DNA from: a virus
Taxonomy: Duplodnaviria; Heunggongvirae; Uroviricota; Caudoviricetes
Reading direction: 5' to 3' (one strand)
Virus record (IMG/VR): IMGVR_UViG_2737471820_000002
Length of the DNA stretch: 43,472 bases
Shown here: positions 25,639-42,014 of the stretch, one piece after another
How positions within the stretch are numbered: the first letter of the stretch is position 1
Layout: each line of letters begins with the position of its first letter
The notes under the pieces: model-generated
What the model saw: only the letters and a program-made list of their open reading frames with translations
Told to the model about the DNA's origin: nothing
The model's database searches: none
Translations under genes and position numbers: made by a program

Positions 25639-26691
25639 TTATTTCCCCACCAGTTCACTTACCTCTTTCACCGTCTGATTAAACCGCTCTGACTCAAGTT
25701 CAACACCTAACGCCCGACGCCCCAGCGCCATTGCCGCTTTTATTGTGGAACCGGATCCCATAAAGAAATCAGCAACCAGATCGCCTTGTCGACTACTGGC
25801 ACTGATTATTTGCCGGAGCATATCCGCGGGCTTCTCACACGGATGTTTACCCGGGTAGAACTGAACGGGTTTATGCGTCCAGACGTCGGTATAAGGCACG
25901 GAAACTGATACGGAGAAATAGCGCCGGAGAGTTTTAAACTCATCCAGCAATTCAGAATATTTGCGATTCAGTGAATCATAAGATGCCACCAGCTGGTGGT
26001 GTGGTTGTTCCAGTTGTTGTTCCTGAAATTTCTCTGCCGCTATACGGGAAAACAGTGCCTGCAACTTCCGGTAGTCAGCCTCATTCGGCAACTGCCACTG
26101 ACTGGCACCAAACCAGTGGGAAACCATATTTTTCTTACCAGTGGCTTCGGCAATCTGTTTTGCCGTTATACCCAGTTCGGCACGAGCATCCCTGAAATAC
26201 GAAATCAGCGGTGCCATTATGTGCTGTTTGAGTTGACTTTCTTTTGCCGCATAGCCGTCACTTTTGCCGCGATATGGTCCCTGGTAATGTTCAGCAAACA
26301 GAACGCGTTCTGTTGCGGGAAAATATGCGCGCAGACTTTCTTTATTACACCCGTTCCATCGTCCGGACGGCTTCGCCCAGATAATATGGTTAAGAACGTT
26401 GAAACGTTCACGCATCATGATCTCGATATCAGATGCGAGGCGATGTCCACAGAACAGGTAAAGGCTTCCGGCAGGTTTCAGCACCCGCCAGAACTGAGCC
26501 AGACAGTGGTCCAGCCACTTCAGGTAATCTTCGTCCCCTTTCCACTGATTGTCCCAACCGTTGGGTTTCACCTTGAAGTACGGCGGATCGGTAACAATCA
26601 GGTCAATGGAATCATCAGGCAGGGACTGAATAAAATGCAGGCAATCAGCGTTGATTAAATCAGCACTGTTTATTTTCACAGTATTTTTCAT
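25639..26691 (-). CDS. DNA methyltransferase (N6A/N4C class, DPPY motif)
   Basis: IVTDPPYF motif and C-terminal FFMGSGST SAM-binding motif. Confidence 0.75.
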   Translation of the reverse strand: MKNTVKINSADLINADCLHFIQSLPDDSIDLIVTDPPYFKVKPNGWDNQWKGDEDYLKWLDHCLAQFWRVLKPAGSLYLFCGHRLASDIEIMMRERFNVLNHIIWAKPSGRWNGCNKESLRAYFPATERVLFAEHYQGPYRGKSDGYAAKESQLKQHIMAPLISYFRDARAELGITAKQIAEATGKKNMVSHWFGASQWQLPNEADYRKLQALFSRIAAEKFQEQQLEQPHHQLVASYDSLNRKYSELLDEFKTLRRYFSVSVSVPYTDVWTHKPVQFYPGKHPCEKPADMLRQIISASSRQGDLVADFFMGSGSTIKAAMALGRRALGVELESERFNQTVKEVSELVGK

Positions 26692-27613: not shown

Positions 27614-28696
27614 ATGAAAAAATTAACAGTGGCAATTTCTGCTGTAGCTGCATCAGTACTGATGGCGATGTCTGCTCAGGCAGCTGAAATTTATAATAAA
27701 GACAGTAACAAGCTGGATCTGTACGGGAAAGTTAATGCTAAGCACTACTTCTCCTCTAATGATGCAGATGATGGTGATACTACTTATGCCCGTCTTGGCT
27801 TCAAAGGTGAAACCCAAATCAACGATCAACTGACTGGTTTCGGTCAGTGGGAATATGAATTCAAAGGCAACCGCGCTGAATCTCAAGGTTCCTCCAAAGA
27901 CAAAACCCGTCTTGCATTTGCAGGCCTGAAATTCGGTGACTACGGCTCAATCGATTACGGCCGTAACTACGGTGTAGCATACGACATCGGTGCGTGGACT
28001 GACGTTCTGCCAGAATTCGGTGGCGATACCTGGACCCAAACAGATGTATTCATGACTGGTCGCACCACAGGTGTTGCAACTTATCGTAACAACGACTTCT
28101 TTGGTCTGGTTGATGGCCTGAACTTTGCAGCTCAGTATCAGGGCAAAAATGACCGAAATGAAGTAACTGAAGCTAATGGCGATGGTTTCGGTTTCTCAAC
28201 TACTTATGAGTATGAAGGATTCGGCGTGGGTGCAACCTATGCTAAATCTGATCGCACTAATAATCAGGTTATCTACGGTAACAACGGTCTGAATGCTTCT
28301 GGTCAAAATGCTGAAGTATGGGCAGCTGGTCTGAAATATGATGCGAACAACATCTATCTGGCCACCACCTATTCTGAAACCCAGAACATGACTGTTTTTG
28401 GTAATAACCATATTGCCAACAAAGCACAAAACTTCGAAGCTGTTGCACAATATCAGTTCGACTTCGGCCTGCGTCCATCCGTTGCTTACCTGCACTCTAA
28501 AGGAAAAGACTTGGGTGTTTGGGGTGATCAGGACCTGGTTGAATATGTTGATGTAGGTGCAACCTATTACTTCAACAAAAATATGTCCACTTTTGTTGAC
28601 TACAAAATCAACCTGATTGATAAGAGCGATTTCACGAAAGCATCTGGCGTTGCTACCGATGATATCGTTGCTGTAGGTATGGTTTACCAGTTCTAA
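27614..28696 (+). CDS. Outer membrane porin (OmpC/NmpC/Lc family)
   Basis: Signal peptide [30 protein letters not shown]...LDLYGK start and C-terminal ...VGMVYQF beta-barrel signature; long AT-rich leader. Confidence 0.85.
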
Positions 28697-28884: not shown

Positions 28885-29268
28885 TTAATTAGAGTTATTA
28901 ACAACGATATCCATCTCTAACCGGATATCTAATGCCATTAACATCCCTTCAATTATGCCCTCAGCCTTTTGTAACCTTTTCCCGATATAACCATCAGAGC
29001 AGCAATGCTTACCTGCCAGTGACATGAATGTCATACCGACTATATAATAATCTACTAATAAATCGTGCAAATCGCTGTTGTTCTTTTTCAGACGGGCCAT
29101 GCACCCGCAAATGATCATCGCGTCATCGTCACAACATTGCGGGCGAGATTTTACTTTTGAAGGAATTAATCCCTTAAAACCGGCGGCAATGGACGACCAG
29201 GTCACATCTTCATGATTATTAGCCGCCCACGCTCCCCAACGCTCAAGAACCATCTGAATATCACGCAT
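28885..29268 (-). CDS. Q: Late antiterminator Q (phage 82 / DLP12 QuuD type)
   Basis: [22 protein letters not shown]... with a Cys cluster, matching DLP12 Q; start taken at the internal ATG. Confidence 0.75.
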
Positions 29269-29356
29269 CAACTTACTCCACAAAAATCAGACCAAAACGC
29301 CAATTACAAGCAAAAATCAACAAAACAGTATTAGTTGATTGTTATCTCTGACTTCA

Positions 29357-29476
29357 TACTCCTGCTCCTGTCAGGGTTTTGGCGTAACTCTTCAGTATTC
29401 GGTAATCGGTCAAAACAGAACCGGGGAAACGATATAAGCGCAGGCGCACCCAGCGGCGGCGAAGACGTTCTGCCAT
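29357..29476 (-). CDS. Small YlcG-like protein
   Basis: 39-aa ORF MAERLRRRWVRLRLYRFPGSVLTDYRILKSYAKTLTGAGV between rusA and Q, the YlcG position in DLP12; not in the ORF track (under 60 aa). Confidence 0.4.
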
Positions 29477-29490
29477 ATAAGACTCAAACA

Positions 29491-29853
29491 TCATTCATCT
29501 CCCAGTTCAGTGATGGTCAGTTCCAGCTTCCCACCTTTGGTAACAGGCATCTTCACAACGCGGTAATCAACGACCAGCTCATCATCCAGCCAGAAACCTG
29601 CTTTAGTGAGTGCGTCAAAAGCGGCTTTTTGCAGATTATCCAGGTCACGGCGACGGCGATCCGGCATGTGGCACTCAATGCGGATTTTCACAGGCATAGC
29701 CAGACCGATATCCAGCATTGAGCCTTTAATGATTCGGGCGACGTTATCGCGGTATGCCTGCCCTTCTGCGCTGATGTGCGTGCGCCCTCGATTATGGCGG
29801 TAGTAGCGGTTATTGCTCGGCGGCCAGGGTAGTGTGATGTGGTAAGTATTCAC
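29491..29853 (-). CDS. rusA: Holliday junction resolvase RusA
   Basis: [26 protein letters not shown]... near-identical to DLP12 RusA. Confidence 0.9.
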
Positions 29854-32727: not shown

Positions 32728-33021
32728 TTATACCCCTCCCCTCCCCCAAAACATCAATACCCGTTTCATCACGGCACTCTGGCGACACTCCTTGAAAATC
32801 AGGTTCGTGCTCACCTTTCCTTCCCGCTCCTCCCTGGTAGCGAACCGGTAATACACCGTTCGCCAGACCTTGCGATCAACGACCAGGATTCCTGCCCGTG
32901 CCATTTTGGCTGCTGCCTGATTGATGCTGGTTACAGTCACGCCTGTTGCCGCAGCTACATCCGGCGCGCAGAAAGTCCGGTGCGTTTTCAGGTAGTGAAG
33001 AATTGCCTCTTTGCCTGTCAT
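32728..33021 (-). CDS. ren: Ren protein
   Basis: MTGKEAILHYLKTHRTFCAPDVAAATGVTVTSINQAAAKMARAG... near-identical to lambda Ren. Confidence 0.85.
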   Translation of the reverse strand: MTGKEAILHYLKTHRTFCAPDVAAATGVTVTSINQAAAKMARAGILVVDRKVWRTVYYRFATREEREGKVSTNLIFKECRQSAVMKRVLMFWGRGGV

Positions 33022-33719
33022 ACACTGGCTCCTTTCAGTCCGAACTTAGCTTTGATTTCTGCGATCTTCGCCAGAGCCTGAGCCCGGTTAAGTGGTCTAC
33101 CGCCCATGACAGGAAGTTGTTTTACTGGTTCAGGTATCGCCTCACCACGATTAATTCGCGCGGTCATACAAGTCAGTTCATCGGCAGCCTTGCGCCGTAA
33201 TTCCGCATCAGTCAGCGCATTGGCCCGCATGTTCTGATACAGGTTGGTAACCAACCAGTAGTGCGCGTTTGATTTCCATGGATAAGACTCTGCATCCGGA
33301 TAAAGGCCACGCTTCCGGCAATACTCGTAAACCATATCAACCAGCTCGCTGGCGTTTGGCAGCCCGGCGTTAACGGATGCTTCTTCCCGGCACCAGGCGA
33401 CAAACTGCCCGGGTGATGGCAGGAATGGTCGATTCTGCCGACGGGCTACGCGCATTCCTGCGTTAACCTGTTCCATTGTGGTGATCCCGTTTTCCCGGAA
33501 AGCCAGAACCCACTGGCGGCGGATTTCGTTCAGTTCATTCTGGTCACGGTTAGCCAGGCTCGCCGGGAAAGTTGCCAGTAACTGGCTGAACACACCGTTG
33601 ATGATCTGCGCTACCTGCTGTACCTGCGGCTTTTCGTCGTACTGTTCCGGCATGTTGTTGGCGATCCGGCGCATCTGCTCACGGTCAAAGTTAACCATCT
33701 GTGCGGCGATGTTTTTCAT
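33018..33719 (-). CDS. P: Replication protein P (DnaB helicase loader)
   Basis: MKNIAAQMVNFDREQMRRIANNMPEQYDEKPQVQQVAQIING... near-identical to lambda P. Confidence 0.92.
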   Translation of the reverse strand: MKNIAAQMVNFDREQMRRIANNMPEQYDEKPQVQQVAQIINGVFSQLLATFPASLANRDQNELNEIRRQWVLAFRENGITTMEQVNAGMRVARRQNRPFLPSPGQFVAWCREEASVNAGLPNASELVDMVYEYCRKRGLYPDAESYPWKSNAHYWLVTNLYQNMRANALTDAELRRKAADELTCMTARINRGEAIPEPVKQLPVMGGRPLNRAQALAKIAEIKAKFGLKGASV

Positions 33720-34645
33720 AAATCCACCCCGTAAATCCAGTCAGTGTTTGTCAGGTCGAGTTTTGATTTTCCGGTTGTCACGCCAGCCTGTTGCTTGTTA
33801 CGGTTGATTTCGAGTTGGGTCCACTTGTCGCGGAGTTTGGCCGGACTCAGCACGTTACCGGACCAGAAGTTGTCCTGGCATGCCCAGCGGAACAGCACGC
33901 ACATGTCGCGGTGGTTACGTCCGTCACGTTCACGCATCAGGCGGATATCGTTAGCCCACCCTGCAATATTCGGTTTTCTGGCTGAGGGCGCGATGGTCTT
34001 CACCATGTTAAACATCCACTCTGCGGCGGTCAGGTCTTCTGCTGTCCCCCACTTGCTGCCGCTCTGAATTGCAGCATCCAGTTTCTCCAAAGGAAAGTCG
34101 TTTTCTGGCTGGTCAGAGGATTCGCCAGAATTCTCGGACGAAAAAGGTTTTATATTGTCTTTTGTTAGTTTGTCTTTTGTGTTTACCTGATTCGGGTAAA
34201 CGCCTTTACCTGATTTGGGTAAACTTTTCTTACCTGATTCAGGTAAATTTACCTCTTTCAGGTAAACTTTATTTTTCTTACCTGATTCGGGTAATGTTGA
34301 CCATTCACTGACCACATTATTAATGCCGATATTCCGCCCACTCTGAATAAAAATCCCACGCTTTACCAGAACACTTTTTGCAGCAGAACACTTGTGCGGC
34401 AATATCCCGGTCAACTCGGAAAGTTGCTCGTTGCTCACCCAATCCAGTTTTTTATTAAAGCCATATGTTTTGCGCATGACAGCCAGGAAGACCAGAAGCT
34501 GGTGCTGTGTTAATCCGGCCAGCATCACAGCTTCCAGCAACTCATTTGCAATGCGCGTATAACCATCATCGAGATCTGCCACGCGCGGCTCCTTTTGTGC
34601 CGCATCCGGCACTGGAAAATTGAATATCTCAGCAGTGTTTGCCAT
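33716..34645 (-). CDS. O: Replication initiator O
   Basis: MANTAEIFNF...VADLDDGY...RKTYGFNK resembles the lambda O N-terminus; iterons lie inside the gene; GGGAGG RBS; start at the internal ATG rather than 34735. Confidence 0.8.
   Translation of the reverse strand: MANTAEIFNFPVPDAAQKEPRVADLDDGYTRIANELLEAVMLAGLTQHQLLVFLAVMRKTYGFNKKLDWVSNEQLSELTGILPHKCSAAKSVLVKRGIFIQSGRNIGINNVVSEWSTLPESGKKNKVYLKEVNLPESGKKSLPKSGKGVYPNQVNTKDKLTKDNIKPFSSENSGESSDQPENDFPLEKLDAAIQSGSKWGTAEDLTAAEWMFNMVKTIAPSARKPNIAGWANDIRLMRERDGRNHRDMCVLFRWACQDNFWSGNVLSPAKLRDKWTQLEINRNKQQAGVTTGKSKLDLTNTDWIYGVDL
34182..34297. repeat. Replication origin iterons (5 copies of about 19 bp, TTACCTGATTCGGGTAAA-like) inside O, with an adjacent AT-rich tract
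   Basis: tttacctgattcgggtaaac / tttacctgatttgggtaaac / cttacctgattcaggtaaat / tttacctctttcaggtaaac / cttacctgattcgggtaatg, each with internal dyad symmetry; AT-rich stretch at 34141-34181. Confidence 0.75.
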
Positions 34646-34731
34646 AATTCCTCCCGCAATGAGTGTGTTACGATTTGCACCTGAAAGTCGGTTCTGTTCC
34701 AGCAGACCGGCTTTCGCCATTTCTGAACCTG

Positions 34732-35271
34732 TCATATCGCCCCCAGCATGGTAGTAACCATCGCCATCAATGGACCAGCCAGATCTGGGTCCACACGAAA
34801 CATCGACACAATACCTTCACTAATTTCCTTCAGTTTCTGGTGGCGTGGTGCGTTGAGAATGACAGCCTGTTTTGCCTCACTGAGTTCCTTTTCCATTTCA
34901 GCCAACCTAGCCATGAAGCTATCCTGCTCAACCAGGTAACCGCGATATTCCAGCGGTAGTACCGCCAGAATTGCCGGGGTCAGTTCACGCACATTATTTC
35001 GGTATTTTTCAGAATCGAATTTGTTATCGAGGAAGCGGAACAGCTTCTGGCGTGCACGGCTGACATCATCAGGGAAATCGATGGTGCCGCCGCCCTGCTC
35101 CCGATACTCATTCACAATGAGTGTGGCAACGACATCCTGATTATCTACAGCCGACCAGGCGCGGACGGCATCACGGATTTTTTCGTGGCCTGGCACCTGT
35201 TTTGTTTGAGAACGATTTATCACCGCAGTCGGGCTAAATCCGCTAGTCTGTTGGTATGTAAGTGGTTGCAT
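34732..35271 (-). CDS. CII-like regulatory protein (YdaT/CP76-type)
   Basis: 179 aa directly downstream of cro and upstream of O, the cII position; ATGA overlap with O. Confidence 0.45.
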   Translation of the reverse strand: MQPLTYQQTSGFSPTAVINRSQTKQVPGHEKIRDAVRAWSAVDNQDVVATLIVNEYREQGGGTIDFPDDVSRARQKLFRFLDNKFDSEKYRNNVRELTPAILAVLPLEYRGYLVEQDSFMARLAEMEKELSEAKQAVILNAPRHQKLKEISEGIVSMFRVDPDLAGPLMAMVTTMLGAI

Positions 35272-35340
35272 AATTGACTCCTTTAGTTTGAATTGACTGT
35301 TAAGTTGATTGCTTATTGTTAAAGAGCGTGAAATGGAAAT

Positions 35341-35571
35341 TTAAGCTGCATTCTTTTCGGTGTGTGGAAACAACTTCGGAAGATCCGGGCGAATCTGGTA
35401 TGCCTTCACTACTCCACCAGTAGCCGTAACAATGCTGCCGACATGTTCAGGGGATACCTTTGCTTTGTTGTGAAGCCACTTATAGACGGCCTGCTGTGAA
35501 ACTTCGCAAGCAGCGCCCAGTTTCTTTTGTGAACCAACGATATTGATCGCTGTTTTGATAGCTGGGTTCAT
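35341..35571 (-). CDS. cro: Cro-like repressor (YdaS-type HTH)
   Basis: 76 aa HTH protein (…QKKLGAACEVSQQAVYKWL…) divergent from cI. Confidence 0.65.
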   Translation of the reverse strand: MNPAIKTAINIVGSQKKLGAACEVSQQAVYKWLHNKAKVSPEHVGSIVTATGGVVKAYQIRPDLPKLFPHTEKNAA

Positions 35572-35609
35572 AACAACCTCCGTGGTTAATTTGAATCAAG
35601 ATTAAAACT

Positions 35610-35634
35610 ATGGTTGTTTTTAGTCAACAACCAT
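35610..35634. promoter_or_regulatory. Operator palindrome in the cI-cro intergenic region (oR candidate)
   Basis: ATGGTTGTT-tttagtc-AACAACCAT perfect 9-bp inverted arms; further GGTTGT/ACAAC half-sites at 35657-35689. Confidence 0.55.
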
Positions 35635-35675
35635 TTTCGTTTGATGGAATAAAACCTTGGTTGTACATTTGGACT

Positions 35676-36365
35676 ATGAAAACAACACTCTCAGAAAGAC
35701 TTAAAGAAGCCAGATTAGCGCGAGGCCTTACACAAAAGGCGCTTGGGGATTTGGTCGGGGTTAGCCAGGCTGCTATTCAGAAAATCGAAACAGGGAAAGC
35801 TAATCAAACAACTAAAATCGTGGAGATCGCGAACGCTTTGGGTGTGCGCGCAGAATGGTTATCTTCTGGCGTTGGAAATATGTCAGACAGTACAGTGCAA
35901 CCAATACAATCAACTGTCAGCCATTCCAAATACTTCAAGATTGACGTTCTTGATATAGAAGTCAGTGCTGGGCCGGGAGTCATCAACCGTGAGTTTGTAG
36001 AAGTTCTACGCTCGGTTGAGTACTCGTTTGACGATGCTCGTCACATGTTCGATGGTAGGAAGGCGGAAAATATCCGCATCATTAACGTGCGTGGTGACAG
36101 CATGTCAGGAACGATCGAACCAGGTGATCTGCTGTTCGTTGATATCACAGTTAAATCTTTCGACGGTGATGGTATCTATGCGTTTCTGTACGACGACACA
36201 GCCCATGTAAAGCGCCTGCAAATGATGAAGGATAAGCTGCTGGTCATCTCTGATAACAAAAGCTACTCACCGTGGGACCCGATCGAGAAAGACGAGATGA
36301 ACCGGGTGTTCATCTTCGGTAAGGTTATTGGGAGCATGCCGCAGACATATAGGAAGCATGGGTAG
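35676..36365 (+). CDS. cI: CI-type repressor (HTH plus S24 peptidase-like C-terminal domain)
   Basis: MKTTLSERLKEARLARGLTQKALGDLVGVSQAAIQKIE HTH; C-terminal region with GDSM...K motif typical of LexA/CI autocleavage; start at 35676 chosen over the ORF-track start at 35610. Confidence 0.8.
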   Translation: MKTTLSERLKEARLARGLTQKALGDLVGVSQAAIQKIETGKANQTTKIVEIANALGVRAEWLSSGVGNMSDSTVQPIQSTVSHSKYFKIDVLDIEVSAGPGVINREFVEVLRSVEYSFDDARHMFDGRKAENIRIINVRGDSMSGTIEPGDLLFVDITVKSFDGDGIYAFLYDDTAHVKRLQMMKDKLLVISDNKSYSPWDPIEKDEMNRVFIFGKVIGSMPQTYRKHG

Positions 36366-36486
36366 TACCAATTAAAAATTATCAACTGGGCATTGTGCTC
36401 ATTCAGTAAAGAACTAATTCCTATCTTTGCTCTAGGTAGTAATATTAAGCCACCGCAATAATATCTTTACCTAACGGCGTAAGAAT

Positions 36487-36513
36487 CCCGGTCACCGTGC
36501 CGGGTTTTCTTTT
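36487..36513 (+). terminator. Rho-independent terminator after cI
   Basis: cccgg-tcaccgtg-ccggg followed by ttttctttt. Confidence 0.6.
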
Positions 36514-36640
36514 GCCCTCCCCTCATCACACACACCGTTAAAAAAACCACCATAACCTCGCTTCAGTTATCGCTATGCGATTCAAGTCACAAAATAAATC
36601 CATCCTAAATACAACCAGTTATATCTAAAACAACCAATAA

Positions 36641-36690
36641 AACAACTTTTGTTGTTGACGATAAAACAACTATAGTTTTAAATAAATTCA
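36641..36690 (+). promoter_or_regulatory. Candidate pL/oL region: palindrome AACAAC-tttt-GTTGTT overlapping a TTGACG -35-like hexamer, with more ACAAC half-sites downstream
   Basis: aacaacttttgttgttgacg at 36641-36660; repeated caacaa/acaac motifs to 36700; -10 assignment uncertain. Confidence 0.4.
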
Positions 36691-36876
36691 TCGCAACAAC
36701 ACAACGATACGGCAACTACCTGATTCACCGTTGCGATGACCGCTTAGATCCGCAGTTTGAATTTCAGCAGGCTTCGGGGAGTGCGAGGGGTGAAACGGAC
36801 GCGTGAACGTCGGTGTGACCAGCTGAAATTAACTCAACATTTCATACCTTAGTCGCTTCAACGAGGCGGCTTAGTT

Positions 36877-37167
36877 ATGACAACCGGCGGCCATCCACCG
36901 CCTGAATACGCGCAGAAGTCTTTATATGTTCAGCAGCCCAGCTTACGGGCAGGAGTTTTTATGGTTCATCAACATTACGGAACGCAGACCGTTAATCGAG
37001 GTGCGGTCATGCCAGGAATGCTGGTCAAACACAAAGATGGTACCTGGACTGCATCAGCTAATTTACGCGGACGGCTTTATCTGCATCGCGGCATCGAGCG
37101 CACTTATACCCGTGATTTGCTCGTGGAAGTTTTTCTCGACGGACGCGGTAACGGCCTGAATCACTAA
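36877..37167 (+). CDS. Hypothetical early-left protein (kil/cIII position); start uncertain
   Basis: Only ORF of 60 aa or more between the pL region and gam; no recognisable N-like Arg-rich motif. Confidence 0.3.
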   Translation: MTTGGHPPPEYAQKSLYVQQPSLRAGVFMVHQHYGTQTVNRGAVMPGMLVKHKDGTWTASANLRGRLYLHRGIERTYTRDLLVEVFLDGRGNGLNH

Positions 37168-37243
37168 CCCCCCTTTCCTGTTTTCCTAATCAGCCTGGCA
37201 TTTCGCGGGCGATATTTTCACAGCCATTTTCAGGAGTTCAGCC

Positions 37244-37540
37244 ATGAACGCTTATTACATTCAGGATCGTCTTGAGGCTCAGAGCTGGGCGCGTCACTAC
37301 CAGCAGATCGCCCGTGAAGAGAAAAAGGCAGAACTGGCAGACGACATGGAAAAAGGCCTGCCCCAGCATTTGTTTGAATCGCTCTGCATCGATCATTTAC
37401 AACGCTGCGGGGCCAGCAAAAAAGCCATTACCCGTGCATTTGATGACGATGTTGAGTTTCAGGAGCGCATGGCAGAACACATCCGGTACATGGTTGAAAC
37501 CATTGCTCACCATCAGGTTGATATTGATTCAGAGGTATAA
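37244..37540 (+). CDS. gam: Gam (RecBCD inhibitor), short form
   Basis: [54 protein letters not shown]... near-identical to lambda GamS. Confidence 0.92.
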
Positions 37541-37545
37541 AACGG

Positions 37546-38331
37546 ATGAGTACAGCACTCGCAACGCTGGCTGGGAAGCTGGCTGAACGTGTCGGCATGG
37601 ATTCTGTCGACCCACAGGAACTGATCACCACTCTTCGCCAGACGGCATTTAAAGGTGATGCCAGCGATGCGCAGTTCATCGTATTGTTGATCGTCGCCAA
37701 CCAGTACGGCCTTAATCCGTGGACGAAAGAAATTTACGCCTTCCCTGACAAGCAGAACGGCATCGTTCCGGTGGTGGGCGTTGATGGCTGGTCCCGTATC
37801 ATCAATGAAAACCAGCAGTTTGATGGCATGGACTTTGAGCAGGACAATGAATCCTGCACATGCCGGATTTACCGCAAGGACCGTAATCATCCGATCTGCG
37901 TTACCGAGTGGATGGATGAATGCCGCCGCGAACCATTCAAAACCCGCGAAGGCAGAGAAATCACGGGGCCGTGGCAGTCGCATCCCAAACGGATGTTACG
38001 TCATAAAGCCATGATTCAGTGTGCCCGTCTGGCCTTCGGATTTGCTGGTATCTATGACAAGGATGAAGCCGAGCGCATTGTCGAAAATACCGCATACACT
38101 GCAGAACGTCAGCCGGAACGCGACATCACTCCGGTTAACGATGAAACCATGCAGGAGATTAACACTCTGCTGATTGCCCTGGATAAAACATGGGATGACG
38201 ACTTATTGCCGCTCTGTTCCCAGATATTTCGCCGCGACATTCGCGCATCGTCAGAACTGACACAGGCCGAAGCAGTGAAAGCTCTTGGATTCCTGAAACA
38301 GAAAGCCTCTGAACAGAAGGTGGCTGCATGA
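37546..38331 (+). CDS. bet: Bet (Red-beta single-strand annealing protein)
   Basis: 261 aa near-identical to lambda Bet. Confidence 0.92.
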
Positions 38332-39008
38332 CACCGGACATTATACTGCAGCGTACCGGGATCGACGTGAGAGCTGTCGAACAGGGGGATGATGCGTGGC
38401 ACAAATTACGGCTCGGCGTCATCACCGCTTCAGAAGTTCACAATGTGATAGCAAAACCCCGCTCCGGAAAGAAATGGCCTGACATGAAAATGTCCTACTT
38501 CCACACCCTGCTGGCTGAGGTTTGCACCGGTGTGGCTCCGGAAGTTAATGCTAAGGCGCTGGCCTGGGGAAAACAGTACGAGAACGACGCCAGAACCCTG
38601 TTTGAATTCACTTCCGGCGTGAATGTTACTGAATCCCCGATCATCTATCGCGACGAAAGTATGCGCACCGCCTGCTCTCCCGATGGTTTATGCAGTGACG
38701 GCAACGGCCTTGAGCTGAAATGCCCGTTTACCTCCCGGGATTTCATGAAGTTCCGGCTCGGTGGTTTCGAGGCCATAAAATCGGCTTACATGGCCCAGGT
38801 GCAATACAGCATGTGGGTGACGCGAAAAGATGCCTGGTACTTTTCCAACTATGACCCGCGTATGAAGCGTGAAGGCCTGCATTATGTCGTAGTTGAGCGG
38901 GATGAAAAGTACATGGCGAGTTTTGACGAGATGGTGCCGGAGTTCATCGAAAAAATGGACGAGGCACTGGCTGAAATTGGTTTTGTATTTGGGGAGCAAT
39001 GGCGATGA
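38328..39008 (+). CDS. exo: Lambda exonuclease (Red-alpha)
   Basis: 226 aa near-identical to lambda Exo. Confidence 0.92.
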
Positions 39009-40009: not shown

Positions 40010-40107
40010 ACATGAAAAGCAAAATCATCAGGGAGCTACAGGCTCCTTTTTTATTATTCGCATTCACCCTCAAGCGTATTAACCAACAATTCAGGGATTA
40101 ATGGAAG

Positions 40108-40652: not shown

Positions 40653-40974
40653 GGCCTGTCAGTTTCTTAAGATATCCAGACCAACCGCCACCAACTGGAT
40701 ACGAACAGGCCGCCTACAGGCAACACGCAAAGACCCCACTAAACCAAAATCTCCTTACCTCACAACGCGACAAGCCTGCATTGCGGCGCTTCAGTCTCCG
40801 CTGCATACTATCAAGGTGAGCGCGGGTGATGGCATAACAGAGGAAAGAAAATGTCACTCTTCCGCAGAAGTGAAATATGGTACGCCAGTTTCACATTGCC
40901 GAACGGTAAAAGATTTAAACAGTCTCTTGGAACAAAGGACAAAAGGCAGGCGACAGAGCTCCATGACAAGCTAA
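40624..40974 (+). CDS. xis: Excisionase (AlpA/Xis-like HTH); 3' boundary uncertain
   Basis: [36 protein letters not shown] is an Xis-type HTH; overlaps the int 5' end as lambda xis does. Confidence 0.5.
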
Positions 40975-42014
40975 AGGCTGAAGCATGGCGGGTCAGCAAA
41001 CTTGGTGAAATACCTGATATGACGTTTGAGGAAGCGTGTGTCAGGTGGCTCGAAGAGAAAGCACATAAAAAATCACTGGACGATGACAAAAGCCGGATCG
41101 GATTCTGGCTTCAACATTTCGCAGGAATGCAACTAAGAGACATTACTGAATCAAAAATTTATTCAGCAATGCAGAAAATGACGAACCGGCGTCATGAGGA
41201 AAACTGGAAACTCAGGGCAGAAGCATGCAGAAAAAAAGGGAAACCTGTTCCAGAATACACGCCAAAACCAGCGTCCGTTGCAACGAAGGCTACGCATCTT
41301 TCATTTATAAAGGCCCTACTAAGAGCCGCAGAGCGTGAATGGAAAATGCTGGATAAGGCACCAATTATTAAAGTGCCTCAACCAAAGAATAAACGGATCC
41401 GCTGGCTGGAGCCCCATGAAGCACAAAGGCTGATTGATGAATGTCCGGAGCCATTAAAGTCTGTTGTTGAATTTGCACTGGCAACAGGCTTAAGACGCTC
41501 GAACATCATCAACCTTGAATGGCAACAAATAGATATGCAGCGCCGGGTGGCATGGATAAACCCGGAAGAGAGTAAATCAAACCGCGCAATTGGCGTTGCG
41601 CTGAATGATACTGCATGTCGCGTATTGAAAAAACAAATCGGGAATCATCACCGTTGGGTATTTGTGTACAAGGAAAGCTGTACCAAACCAGACGGAACGA
41701 AAGCGCCAACAGTAAGGAAGATGCGGTATGACGCAAACACAGCCTGGAAAGCGGCGCTGAGACGGGCTGGTATTGATGATTTCAGATTTCACGACTTGAG
41801 ACACACCTGGGCAAGTTGGCTGGTTCAAGCCGGAGTCCCGTTGTCAGTGTTACAGGAAATGGGAGGCTGGGAGTCTATCGAAATGGTTCGTCGATATGCT
41901 CACCTTGCACCTAATCACCTTACCGAACACGCACGGCAAATAGACTCGATCCTGAACCCATCGGTCCCAAATTTGTCCCAGTCAAAAAATAAGGAAGGTA
42001 CTAATGATGTGTAA
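40851..42014 (+). CDS. int: Tyrosine integrase
   Basis: 387 aa; C-terminal [10 protein letters not shown]...VRRYAH catalytic motifs; adjacent to the tRNA 3' end. Confidence 0.9.

Follow-up and report, generated by a model that had tools for sequence, protein, structure and literature searches.

The 43,472-nucleotide (nt) stretch of viral DNA analyzed here (the window; IMG/VR record IMGVR_UViG_2737471820_000002, Caudoviricetes) carries a lambdoid prophage integrated at the tRNA-Thr gene thrW, adjoining proA, and its + strand runs in the ‘leftward’, or pL, direction. At issue is the interval between the cI repressor gene and gam (36366–37243), in which the initial annotation had recognized no N antiterminator. 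The terminator and the operator/promoter-like cluster that it had read downstream of cI are both present, the former as a hairpin with a T-run and the latter as three operator repeats plus pL spanning 36605–36683 (Table 1). The pL transcript probably starts near 36690, because relatives with other promoter/operator sequences turn homologous exactly at 36690–36691. The further statement that ~190 bp lack an open reading frame (ORF) is right for the 187 nt that lead to the ATG at 36877, but the untranslated leader up to the start of kil, the first gene of the operon, is actually ~270 nt long. This leader comprises a conserved 5′ part and a structured cassette with the order H1, upstream ORF (uORF), H2 and H3.

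Table 1. Features of the immunity region, the pL leader and the flanking operons, listed by position in the window (aa, amino acids; SD, Shine-Dalgarno sequence).
Feature	Position	Strand	Sequence, evidence or remark
Q antiterminator, late-gene control	28885–29283		PF06530
P	33018–33719	−	
O	33716–34735	−	
YdaT-type ‘cII-like’ gene	34732–35271	−	
boxA, perfect rrn type	35316–35327	−	GCTCTTTAACAA; 12/12, sole exact match in the window
cro, YdaS-type helix-turn-helix protein, first pR gene	35341–35571	−	Pfam YdaS_toxin 4e-17, P22_Cro 8e-5; PHROG 35
cI repressor, 229 aa, helix-turn-helix + S24 peptidase	35676–36365	+	Pfam Peptidase_S24, HTH_3; RefSeq WP_000858975.1, same limits
3′-end remnant of ASCH-domain/‘GevA’ gene	36407–36482	+	homology to PhiR47_2, 4A7
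Intrinsic terminator closing the cI (immunity) transcript	36487–36510	+	CCCGGTCACCGTGCCGGG then TTTTCTTTT; hairpin 36487–36504 + T-run
Three oL operators	36605–36617, 36637–36653, 36661–36677	+	direct and inverted repeats common to oR/pR
pL	−35 36655–60, −10 36678–83	+	TTGACG, 17 nt, TTAAAT; hexamers read from sequence; mirrors pR
pL leader, 5′ part, non-coding, E. coli-phage-specific	36691–36842	+	conserved 95–99%
31-aa Arg-rich ORF, rejected as gene	36757–36852	+	TTG start; ..GVKRTRERRCDQ.. (..GVKRTRERR..); no family match
Cassette, 5′ half	36843–36902	+	model R2 88.3 bits, E 1e-20
H1	36843–36879	+	outer helix CAUA/UAUG buries uORF AUG 36877
AUGACAACCGGCGGCCAUCCACCGCC, encoding MTTGGHPPP and forming hairpin H2	H2 36886–36902	+	invariant
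Cassette, 3′ half	36903–36960	+	linker; GCGCAGAAGUCU 36910–36921; H3; kil SD AGGAG 36951–55
H3	GCCC 36936–39 / GGGC 36947–50	+	compensatory variants GCCC/GGGC, GCGC/GCGC, GCC/GGC
kil, 68-aa KilR-type division (FtsZ) inhibitor, first pL-operon gene	36961–37167	+	PHROG 294, NF008465, RefSeq WP_000233576.1
Junction to lambda-type recombination module	37161–37243	+	last 28 nt of lambda-type kil (37161–37188) + kil–gam spacer
gam, bet, exo, tightly packed	37244–39008 (gam 37244–37540)	+	Pfam Gam 2e-63; relatives’ annotation
First convincing pL-strand intrinsic terminator	40030–40058	+	AGGGAGCTACAGGCTCCTT then TTTTATTATT; between orf61-like gene and traR/DUF4222/xis/int

In the ORF list of the window, the ATG at 36877 opens a 96-aa ORF that had been taken to be of unknown function, with a kil/cIII-type product offered as one alternative. 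The alternative was correct, and the product is Kil. The 96-aa ORF matches PHROG 294 (‘Kil protein for bacterial septation inhibition’) with an E-value of 1.2e-38, and position 1 of the NF008465 profile (Rac KilR, ‘FtsZ inhibitor protein’) aligns with residue 29, the profile covering residues 29–96. The ORF is thus a composite of a 28-codon uORF that happens to be in frame and a 68-aa KilR-type Kil. Residues 1–68 of the latter align with positions 1–70 of the 73 in NF008465 (E-value 1.8e-17); the score of 63 bits lies below the curated cut-off of 92 bits, and the protein is therefore a relative and not an equivalog. A strong AGGAG Shine-Dalgarno sequence stands 5 nt before the ATG at 36961, RefSeq calls the 68-aa form from this start in the two genomes examined, and the Kil homologues of HK225, Citrobacter, Kluyvera, Enterobacter and other genera begin at the same residue. 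The gene lies directly upstream of gam-bet-exo, a position that it also occupies in HK225, KO-TP1 and other genera. By sequence membership, Kil would be an FtsZ inhibitor of the KilR type.

The Kil protein is 100% identical in 80 IMG/VR contigs; polymorphisms in kil fall without exception at codon position 3, which we did not count as evidence, the loci having been chosen for 100% protein identity. GenBank phage annotations of the locus are inconsistent and include a 77-aa ORF in the wrong frame, a 128-aa ‘Kil’ (PhiR47_2), a ‘membrane carboxypeptidase’ and a ‘hypothetical protein’. The 77-aa ORF (36926–37159, annotated in PhiR34_1) has no family match and was rejected as spurious. In one relative (IMG/VR contig 2531839584_000009, locus L176), the kil ATG is replaced by ATT while the in-frame uORF–kil frame stays open; here, either the long form could be the only one possible, or the gene could be inactive.

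The cassette, 118 nt long, separates the 5′ part of the leader from kil, and 36840–36902 matches unannotated spacers in HK225 (95%) and phi80 (85%). An exact-pattern scan of IMG/VR with an invariant 26-mer gathered more than 120 loci, and 81 distinct cassettes were aligned. Their common order is CAUAC, a variable H1, the invariant AUGACAACCGGCGGCCAUCCACCGCC, a variable linker, GCGCAGAAGUCUUGUAUUAAC(C)GUUC, H3, and a Shine-Dalgarno sequence with the downstream start; a conserved, Shine-Dalgarno-like GAG(G) (GAGG at 36863–66 in the window) lies in the 3′ arm of H1, 10 nt before the uORF AUG, and H1 thus sequesters both. Two lines of evidence support H1 as an RNA structure: i) eight H1 sequence classes, folded singly, adopt one common shape with z-scores of −3.0 to −6.4 (−4.14 for the window), and ii) H1 covaries. 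In an alignment of 34 distinct sequences, whose fitting to model R2 qualifies the figures, 98.2% of cells were paired as against 85.2% in shuffles (0/500 as high), seven of the 15 H1 pairs were changed on both sides, and the covariation score was 0.391, as compared to 0.141 upon shuffling and at most 0.078 with the partners slid. H1 contains G·U pairs, and the structure therefore belongs to the + strand RNA.

Beyond MTTGGHPP(P), the uORF peptide is not conserved, and the linker frame differs among phages. The uORF frame is interrupted by a stop codon in none of 40 distinct linkers, as compared to 13 and 22 for the other two frames. In 42 of the 81 cassettes, the uORF ends 31–39 nt before the downstream AUG (at 37–39 nt in 41 of these), just 5′ of H3; elsewhere it ends in the H3/Shine-Dalgarno region, overlaps the downstream start, ends out of frame within the gene, or is fused to it in frame. 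The window is of the last type, its uORF being fused to kil, and the L145 type carries the same kil after an out-of-frame 38-aa uORF. A divergent second copy at locus L196 keeps H1, the AUG and a 33-aa uORF encoding an unrelated peptide, and lacks H2. Indirectly, these points and the conserved spacing of GAG(G) favor a translated uORF.

In HK225, phi80, KO-TP1, ENT1, HK639 and most IMG/VR loci, the cassette lies directly 3′ of an intrinsic terminator that ends the prior gene, these terminators being of several hairpin types followed by a T-run. In the phi80 record, the terminator is named tL1A, and an ‘N’ gene and a putative nutL boxA are placed ahead of it; in the HK639 record, H2 and a T-run are annotated as a second terminator. 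In the window type, the terminator hairpin is gone, ..CA(T/C)TTCATACC is left, and the cassette is joined to the 150-nt leader that extends from the pL +1 position. The genes downstream of the cassette are diverse, comprising Kil and at least eight unrelated small proteins; those upstream in other phages are very diverse, with none clearly N-like. The cassette is not itself a replacement of put or N, as it coexists with an upstream put in 18/100 loci (immediately adjacent in L115) and sits after the tL1 terminator. It is therefore a portable leader, placed ahead of whichever gene comes first after tL1. Independent assortment of its H1, linker and H3 types suggests recombination within conserved blocks.

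The cassette occurs in 2301 complete E. coli genomes; none of the 12 RefSeq records listed has an annotated feature at its position, and its hosts are lambdoid phages of Escherichia, Klebsiella, Enterobacter and Salmonella (loci L004, L005, L016 and L104–L226). It is absent from Rfam 15, and no paper on its sequence or on the MTTGGHPPP peptide was found in the literature. The covarying H1–uORF–H3 cassette is thus apparently undescribed and, together with an orphan consensus boxA described below, apparently new. A second portable 5′-untranslated block (AAAGCATTTCTCCCGCATCAGCGGGTAAC..AGAGGG..ATG, with the hairpin CCCGC-AUCA-GCGGG) stands before unrelated early-left genes in phi80, HK225, KO-TP1 and ENT1 (L005 2140–2185; L004 1760–1805 and 1995–2020; L104 ~1240–1285; L105 ~1280–1320); it is not present in this window.

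We next consider whether N or its sites lie behind pL. All ORFs of at least 25 aa in 36366–37243 were listed and profile-searched against Pfam, PHROGs and NCBIfam, and none matched the N family. The earlier reading that no Arg-rich N-like protein is evident stands as far as family matches go, but one Arg-rich ORF is present (36757–36852), which is not conserved as coding. Arg-rich stretches in all ORFs of the window yielded no other early-left candidate, just YlcG-like and NinE-like peptides near Q. The N motifs of lambda and P22 are TRRRERR and TRRHERR, respectively, and the KRTRERR of this ORF resembles them; its Arg codons overlap a CG-rich hairpin, GACGCGUGAACGUC. One could imagine a mini-N or, where the TAG stop at 36850 is CAG, a Kil lengthened N-terminally by an Arg-rich segment, in either case with the hairpin serving as boxB. 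The frame is indeed open into kil in 49/67 related sequences, and PhiR47_2 is annotated with its 128-aa ‘Kil’. However, the stop codon is polymorphic (TAG in 18/67, CAG in 49/67), with the deposited phage PhiR34_1 carrying the TAG form; frameshifting indels occur in 6/67 sequences (a 5-nt insertion in four, 1-nt indels in two); 6/22 substitutions are synonymous, which is the neutral expectation; and neither TTG 36757 nor GTG 36783 is preceded by a Shine-Dalgarno sequence. With no family match and no boxA in the leader either, we give a mini-N scarcely any credence, and the divergent small N that the initial annotation had allowed for was not borne out.

A search for nut-like boxA/boxB elements in the pL region, which had been proposed as a check, found none in the leader: no boxA lies in 36690–36960 within two mismatches of GCTCTTTAACAA or one mismatch of CGCTCTTA, and the pL leader holds no boxB. 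For put, a covariance model (R1) was built from eight put RNAs, namely those of HK022 (putL, putR), HK639, phiEt88, CobraSix, S9-5, UPF_BP1 and PdC23. While putL sequences scored 93–97 bits and HK022 putR, the most divergent member, 56 bits, the model had no match in the window or in related loci under default filters, and with filters off, its best score in 34600–37400 was 5.8 bits. Rfam 15, applied to the whole window at gathering thresholds and to 35200–37300 at E≤10, returned tRNA and chance matches only. The put-type RNA that had been suggested as an alternative thus finds no counterpart here. The svsR small RNA of prophage NC-SV was tried as a candidate leader RNA and rejected; it is located in the 3′ end of cI instead. 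On these searches, we take the N gene, nutL and put RNA to be truly absent after pL. Lambdoid phages without N have been noted before, for example HK022 (PMC9378689) and phage LLS (PMC12315714).

The 5′ part of the leader is of a different character from the cassette. Its sequence is retained across 47 leader variants, which have at least four types of promoter in front of them, and it is present in 2238/5426 complete E. coli genomes (~40%). Conservation from the presumed +1 position behind that many promoter/operator types, together with its wide spread, would fit a new cis-acting antiterminator RNA, doing a put-like job without being related to put, that renders transcription Rho-resistant and takes it through 40030 to xis and int. 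The leader fills the slot in which put directly precedes the same cassette in L115, a genuine terminator does stand ahead of traR-xis-int, and the minimum free energy fold of 36691–36842 consists of two adjacent hairpins closed by an 11-bp helix. This fold, however, is not more stable than those of shuffled sequences (z −0.11), and the predicted structure shifts with the sub-sequence folded. There are no compensatory changes among homologues that, at 95–99% identity, are too similar for a covariation test, and in the O157-type variant, the first ~35 nt are replaced altogether. The put model does not exceed 5.8 bits, and the likeness to the putL core (a 19/24 match) is not significant. We consider an antiterminator RNA in this position quite improbable.

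Compared with the pL leaders of phi80, HK225, HK639, HK022 and other genera, the 5′ leader is similar over its first ~24 nt only. The pL transcripts of HK639, phiEt88, S9-5, phi80, HK225 and this prophage (36686–36710), phages otherwise unrelated, open with a similar motif, (C/T)CATCGnAACnAnACAnCGA, which could be a signal in the initially transcribed region or a linker at a module boundary.

A model for the early-left operon emerges from the distribution of terminators. No strong intrinsic terminator is predicted on the + strand from pL to 40030, and none on the − strand from cro to Q. Since no strong intrinsic terminator precedes 40030, the ORFs are close-packed and tL1 is missing, the early-left operon would need no phage antiterminator, and the leader would instead set the translation of Kil; we hold this to be the probable explanation, with some reserve. 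The initial annotation had supposed that an alternative antitermination mechanism may be at work; the anatomy of the operon, which lacks a tL1-type terminator, does not require one. Coupled translation of kil-gam-bet-exo would shield the transcript from Rho, and the cassette would act on translation. Opening of H1 would let ribosomes start the uORF, and ribosomes at the uORF end, or reading in frame into kil, would melt H3. The H1/uORF/H3 gating could thereby set the dose of toxic Kil and keep ribosomes on the long leader.

Several points weigh against this explanation. The terminator scan was a simple consensus search, blind to Rho-dependent sites, and the transcript start, the translation of the uORF and the lack of Rho-dependent terminators are all things that we infer. 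The terminator at 40030 precedes traR-xis-int, and expression of xis from pL needs readthrough or another promoter. H2 and the MTTGGHPPP codons belonged to the search pattern, so that their invariance is partly a collection effect. The model does not account for the strong conservation that the 5′ leader shows from +1 onward behind different promoter types. On the right arm, relatives with a different cro module, 4A7 among them, lack the consensus boxA, which is therefore not the general solution of the family. Lastly, the 187-nt untranslated and partly C-rich 5′ stretch is just where Rho could act.

The last point leads to a reading that sees in the long leader mainly a Rho-dependent attenuator, silencing toxic kil and leaky pL transcripts, with H1-gated, PPP-slowed translation of the uORF deciding if Rho catches up with the polymerase. 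As read from the sequence, the first ~50 nt of the leader are rich in C and poor in G, a composition that would favor the loading of Rho; 187 nt are untranslated, and the uORF frame stays free of stops as far as the downstream ribosome-binding site. Silencing of Rac kilR by Rho/NusG was reportedly found by Cardinale et al. in 2008. In favor of an attenuator, we also count that a translation block linked to BoxA can promote termination by Rho (PMC5725501). Neither a rut site nor a termination point can be pinpointed computationally, though, and in most other phages it is a translated gene, and not a long leader, that precedes the cassette, so attenuation is not its general role. We regard the attenuator as unlikely; it overlaps with the favored explanation, that of an operon without antitermination whose leader sets Kil translation, and does not exclude it. 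A related question is whether the pL leader holds an undescribed regulatory RNA, be it a 5′ antiterminator/anti-Rho RNA or an H1–uORF(MTTGGHPPP)–H2–H3 riboregulator. We put this forward tentatively, and with more doubt than belief; of the two, the mobile polyproline-uORF riboregulator is better supported than a new protein-independent antiterminator/anti-Rho RNA.

How the present arrangement arose can be read at the junction with the recombination module. The segment 37161–37243 is 98.8% identical to many Shiga toxin (Stx) phages; in Stx phage P27, homology sets in 28 nt short of the end of a lambda-type, 54-aa Kil coding sequence that N and two other genes precede. Given the 28-nt remnant of the old kil and the gene order of P27, the N-to-kil segment has therefore been replaced here by the leader and the KilR-type kil. 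Remnants of lambda-type kil and of gevA are traces of earlier deletions or replacements, one at either end of the region, as would be expected of a defective prophage that lost N by deletion. Against such decay, the window keeps cI, cro, O, P, Q, lysis, structural and int genes intact, and the same N-less arrangement recurs, at 96–99% identity, in phages deposited as complete genomes (PhiR34_1, PhiR5_1, PhiR26_1, PhiR47_2, Turner, IdasGreatGrand, 4A7, 1W, 3W, D2 and Perceval), and it is also present in the 2238 complete E. coli genomes. PhiR34_1, whose host is recorded as MG1655, is 99.3% identical over 36366–37243. Decay is thus an extremely improbable explanation. Because near-identical phages such as PhiR34_1 and Turner were deposited as complete phage genomes, the arrangement is best regarded as a common, viable early-left variant.

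On the right arm, the consensus boxA stands 14 nt after the cro stop codon and 44 nt before the start of the ydaT/cII-like gene, which is the nutR position. It fits the BoxA consensus GYTCTTTAANA (PMC5725501) and is conserved in 27 related loci. The element goes with this cro module alone, and the module is confined to the six sequenced phages of this immunity type, none of which has N. No boxB or boxC was recognized next to the cro-proximal boxA, the 44-nt spacer folding at −4.1 kcal/mol (z −0.14). A BoxA of this consensus less than 50 nt from a start codon can recruit the Nus complex and repress translation, as at suhB, and the rrn boxA confers resistance to Rho (PMC5725501). The orphan boxA after cro would recruit NusB/NusE and the host Nus complex, and the effect, depending on the host only, may be rrn-like Rho resistance towards Q or a tuning of ydaT translation. 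In place of boxA, the cro–cII spacer of relatives with another cro contains a GCCGC-CUAAUCU-GCGGC hairpin without a T-run (4A7, L003 519–548, transcript sense), which resembles the stems of the tL1-type terminators preceding the cassette.

Around these elements, the prophage has a lambdoid layout. The segment 36663–36681 within the oL/pL region is 95% complementary to the oR site at 35602–35620. In the Salmonella phage UPF_BP1 (L020 ~270–300), a near-identical pL −10/operator sequence, ACAACCATAGTTTTAAAT, is joined straight to the putL RNA; one promoter type thus occurs with put in UPF_BP1 and with the N-less leader in this prophage. The interval 36366–36486 is an empty cargo site between cI and oL. 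In relatives, this site holds a two-gene module annotated as GevT toxin and GevA (ASCH-domain) antitoxin, of which the last 76 nt of gene two are left here: homology to PhiR47_2 and 4A7 begins at query position 42, within their gevA/ASCH coding sequence, which ends 76 nt further on. After exo follow small genes, a TraR/DksA-like gene, a xis-like gene, int (40851–42014) and the tRNA-Thr gene. Two cargo genes lie between Q and holin in the late-operon leader region, a full-length general porin gene (Porin_1, E-value 4e-152; 27614–28696, +) and a DNA methylase gene (25639–26691, −). Between rusA and Q lies a 46-aa Arg-rich ORF (..AERLRRRWVRLR..; 29354–29494, −), in a position which we take to be that of ylcG in DLP12.

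The early-left region can be compared with several known systems. As in the N–nut phages lambda, P22 and phi21, pL is followed at the same genome position by a first early-left function and then by kil-gam-bet-exo, and as in lambda, a boxA lies just after cro at the nutR site, here closer to the consensus than lambda’s own boxA. Unlike in those phages, there is no N or other Arg-rich protein, no boxA/boxB in the leader, and no boxB at the cro-proximal boxA. With the put phages HK022 and HK639, the prophage shares a lambdoid, N-less organization and a non-coding RNA segment starting from or near the pL +1 position; unlike there, the put model is negative on both operons, the leader shows no significant likeness, and its 5′ part is without structural support. 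The boxA resembles the rrn boxA in its 12/12 match and that of suhB in lying less than 50 nt from a start codon (PMC5725501), and differs from the rrn element in that no boxB-like hairpin or boxC was recognized around it.

Kil is a homologue of Rac KilR. In the Qin dicBF system, a CI-type repressor controls a leftward operon for a toxic FtsZ-directed inhibitor without N (PMC10448788), and here, too, a CI-type repressor stands over a leftward, N-less operon with a division inhibitor gene. Unlike Rac and Qin, which are cryptic, the phage family here appears viable, and Kil is the first gene behind a conserved cassette; Rfam searches found no DicF-like small RNA. The leader also invites comparison with those of mgtA and mgtCBR, which have proline-codon uORFs, and with a translation-aborting small ORF described in PMC8092293. 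The likeness consists in a short uORF with consecutive proline codons within a structured leader, and in a hairpin adjoining the downstream ribosome-binding site, which could be opened by translation of the uORF. In contrast to mgtA/mgtCBR, to which it has no sequence relationship, the cassette is phage-borne, mobile and found before many unrelated genes, and the translation of its uORF is presumed.

Taken together, these findings bear on how lambdoid phages run their early-left operons. N and nut are often assumed for all lambdoid phages, and a module without N or put is present in viable phages and in ~40% of complete E. coli genomes; the early-left operon would thus be run differently in much of the natural lambdoid prophage population. 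The recurrent wrong calls at this locus can be replaced by a 68-aa kil, which corrects an annotation problem. The orphan consensus boxA offers a simple test case for host-only Nus-factor control in a phage. Were the 5′ 150-nt RNA to act as an antiterminator or anti-Rho element, it would let a very common E. coli phage family dispense with N. If the riboregulator is real, it would gate the translation of whichever gene comes first behind tL1, in many cases that of the toxic Kil, and would do so across many lambdoid phages of Escherichia, Klebsiella, Enterobacter and Salmonella; the conserved cassette provides a concrete handle on the dosing of toxic early genes such as kil.

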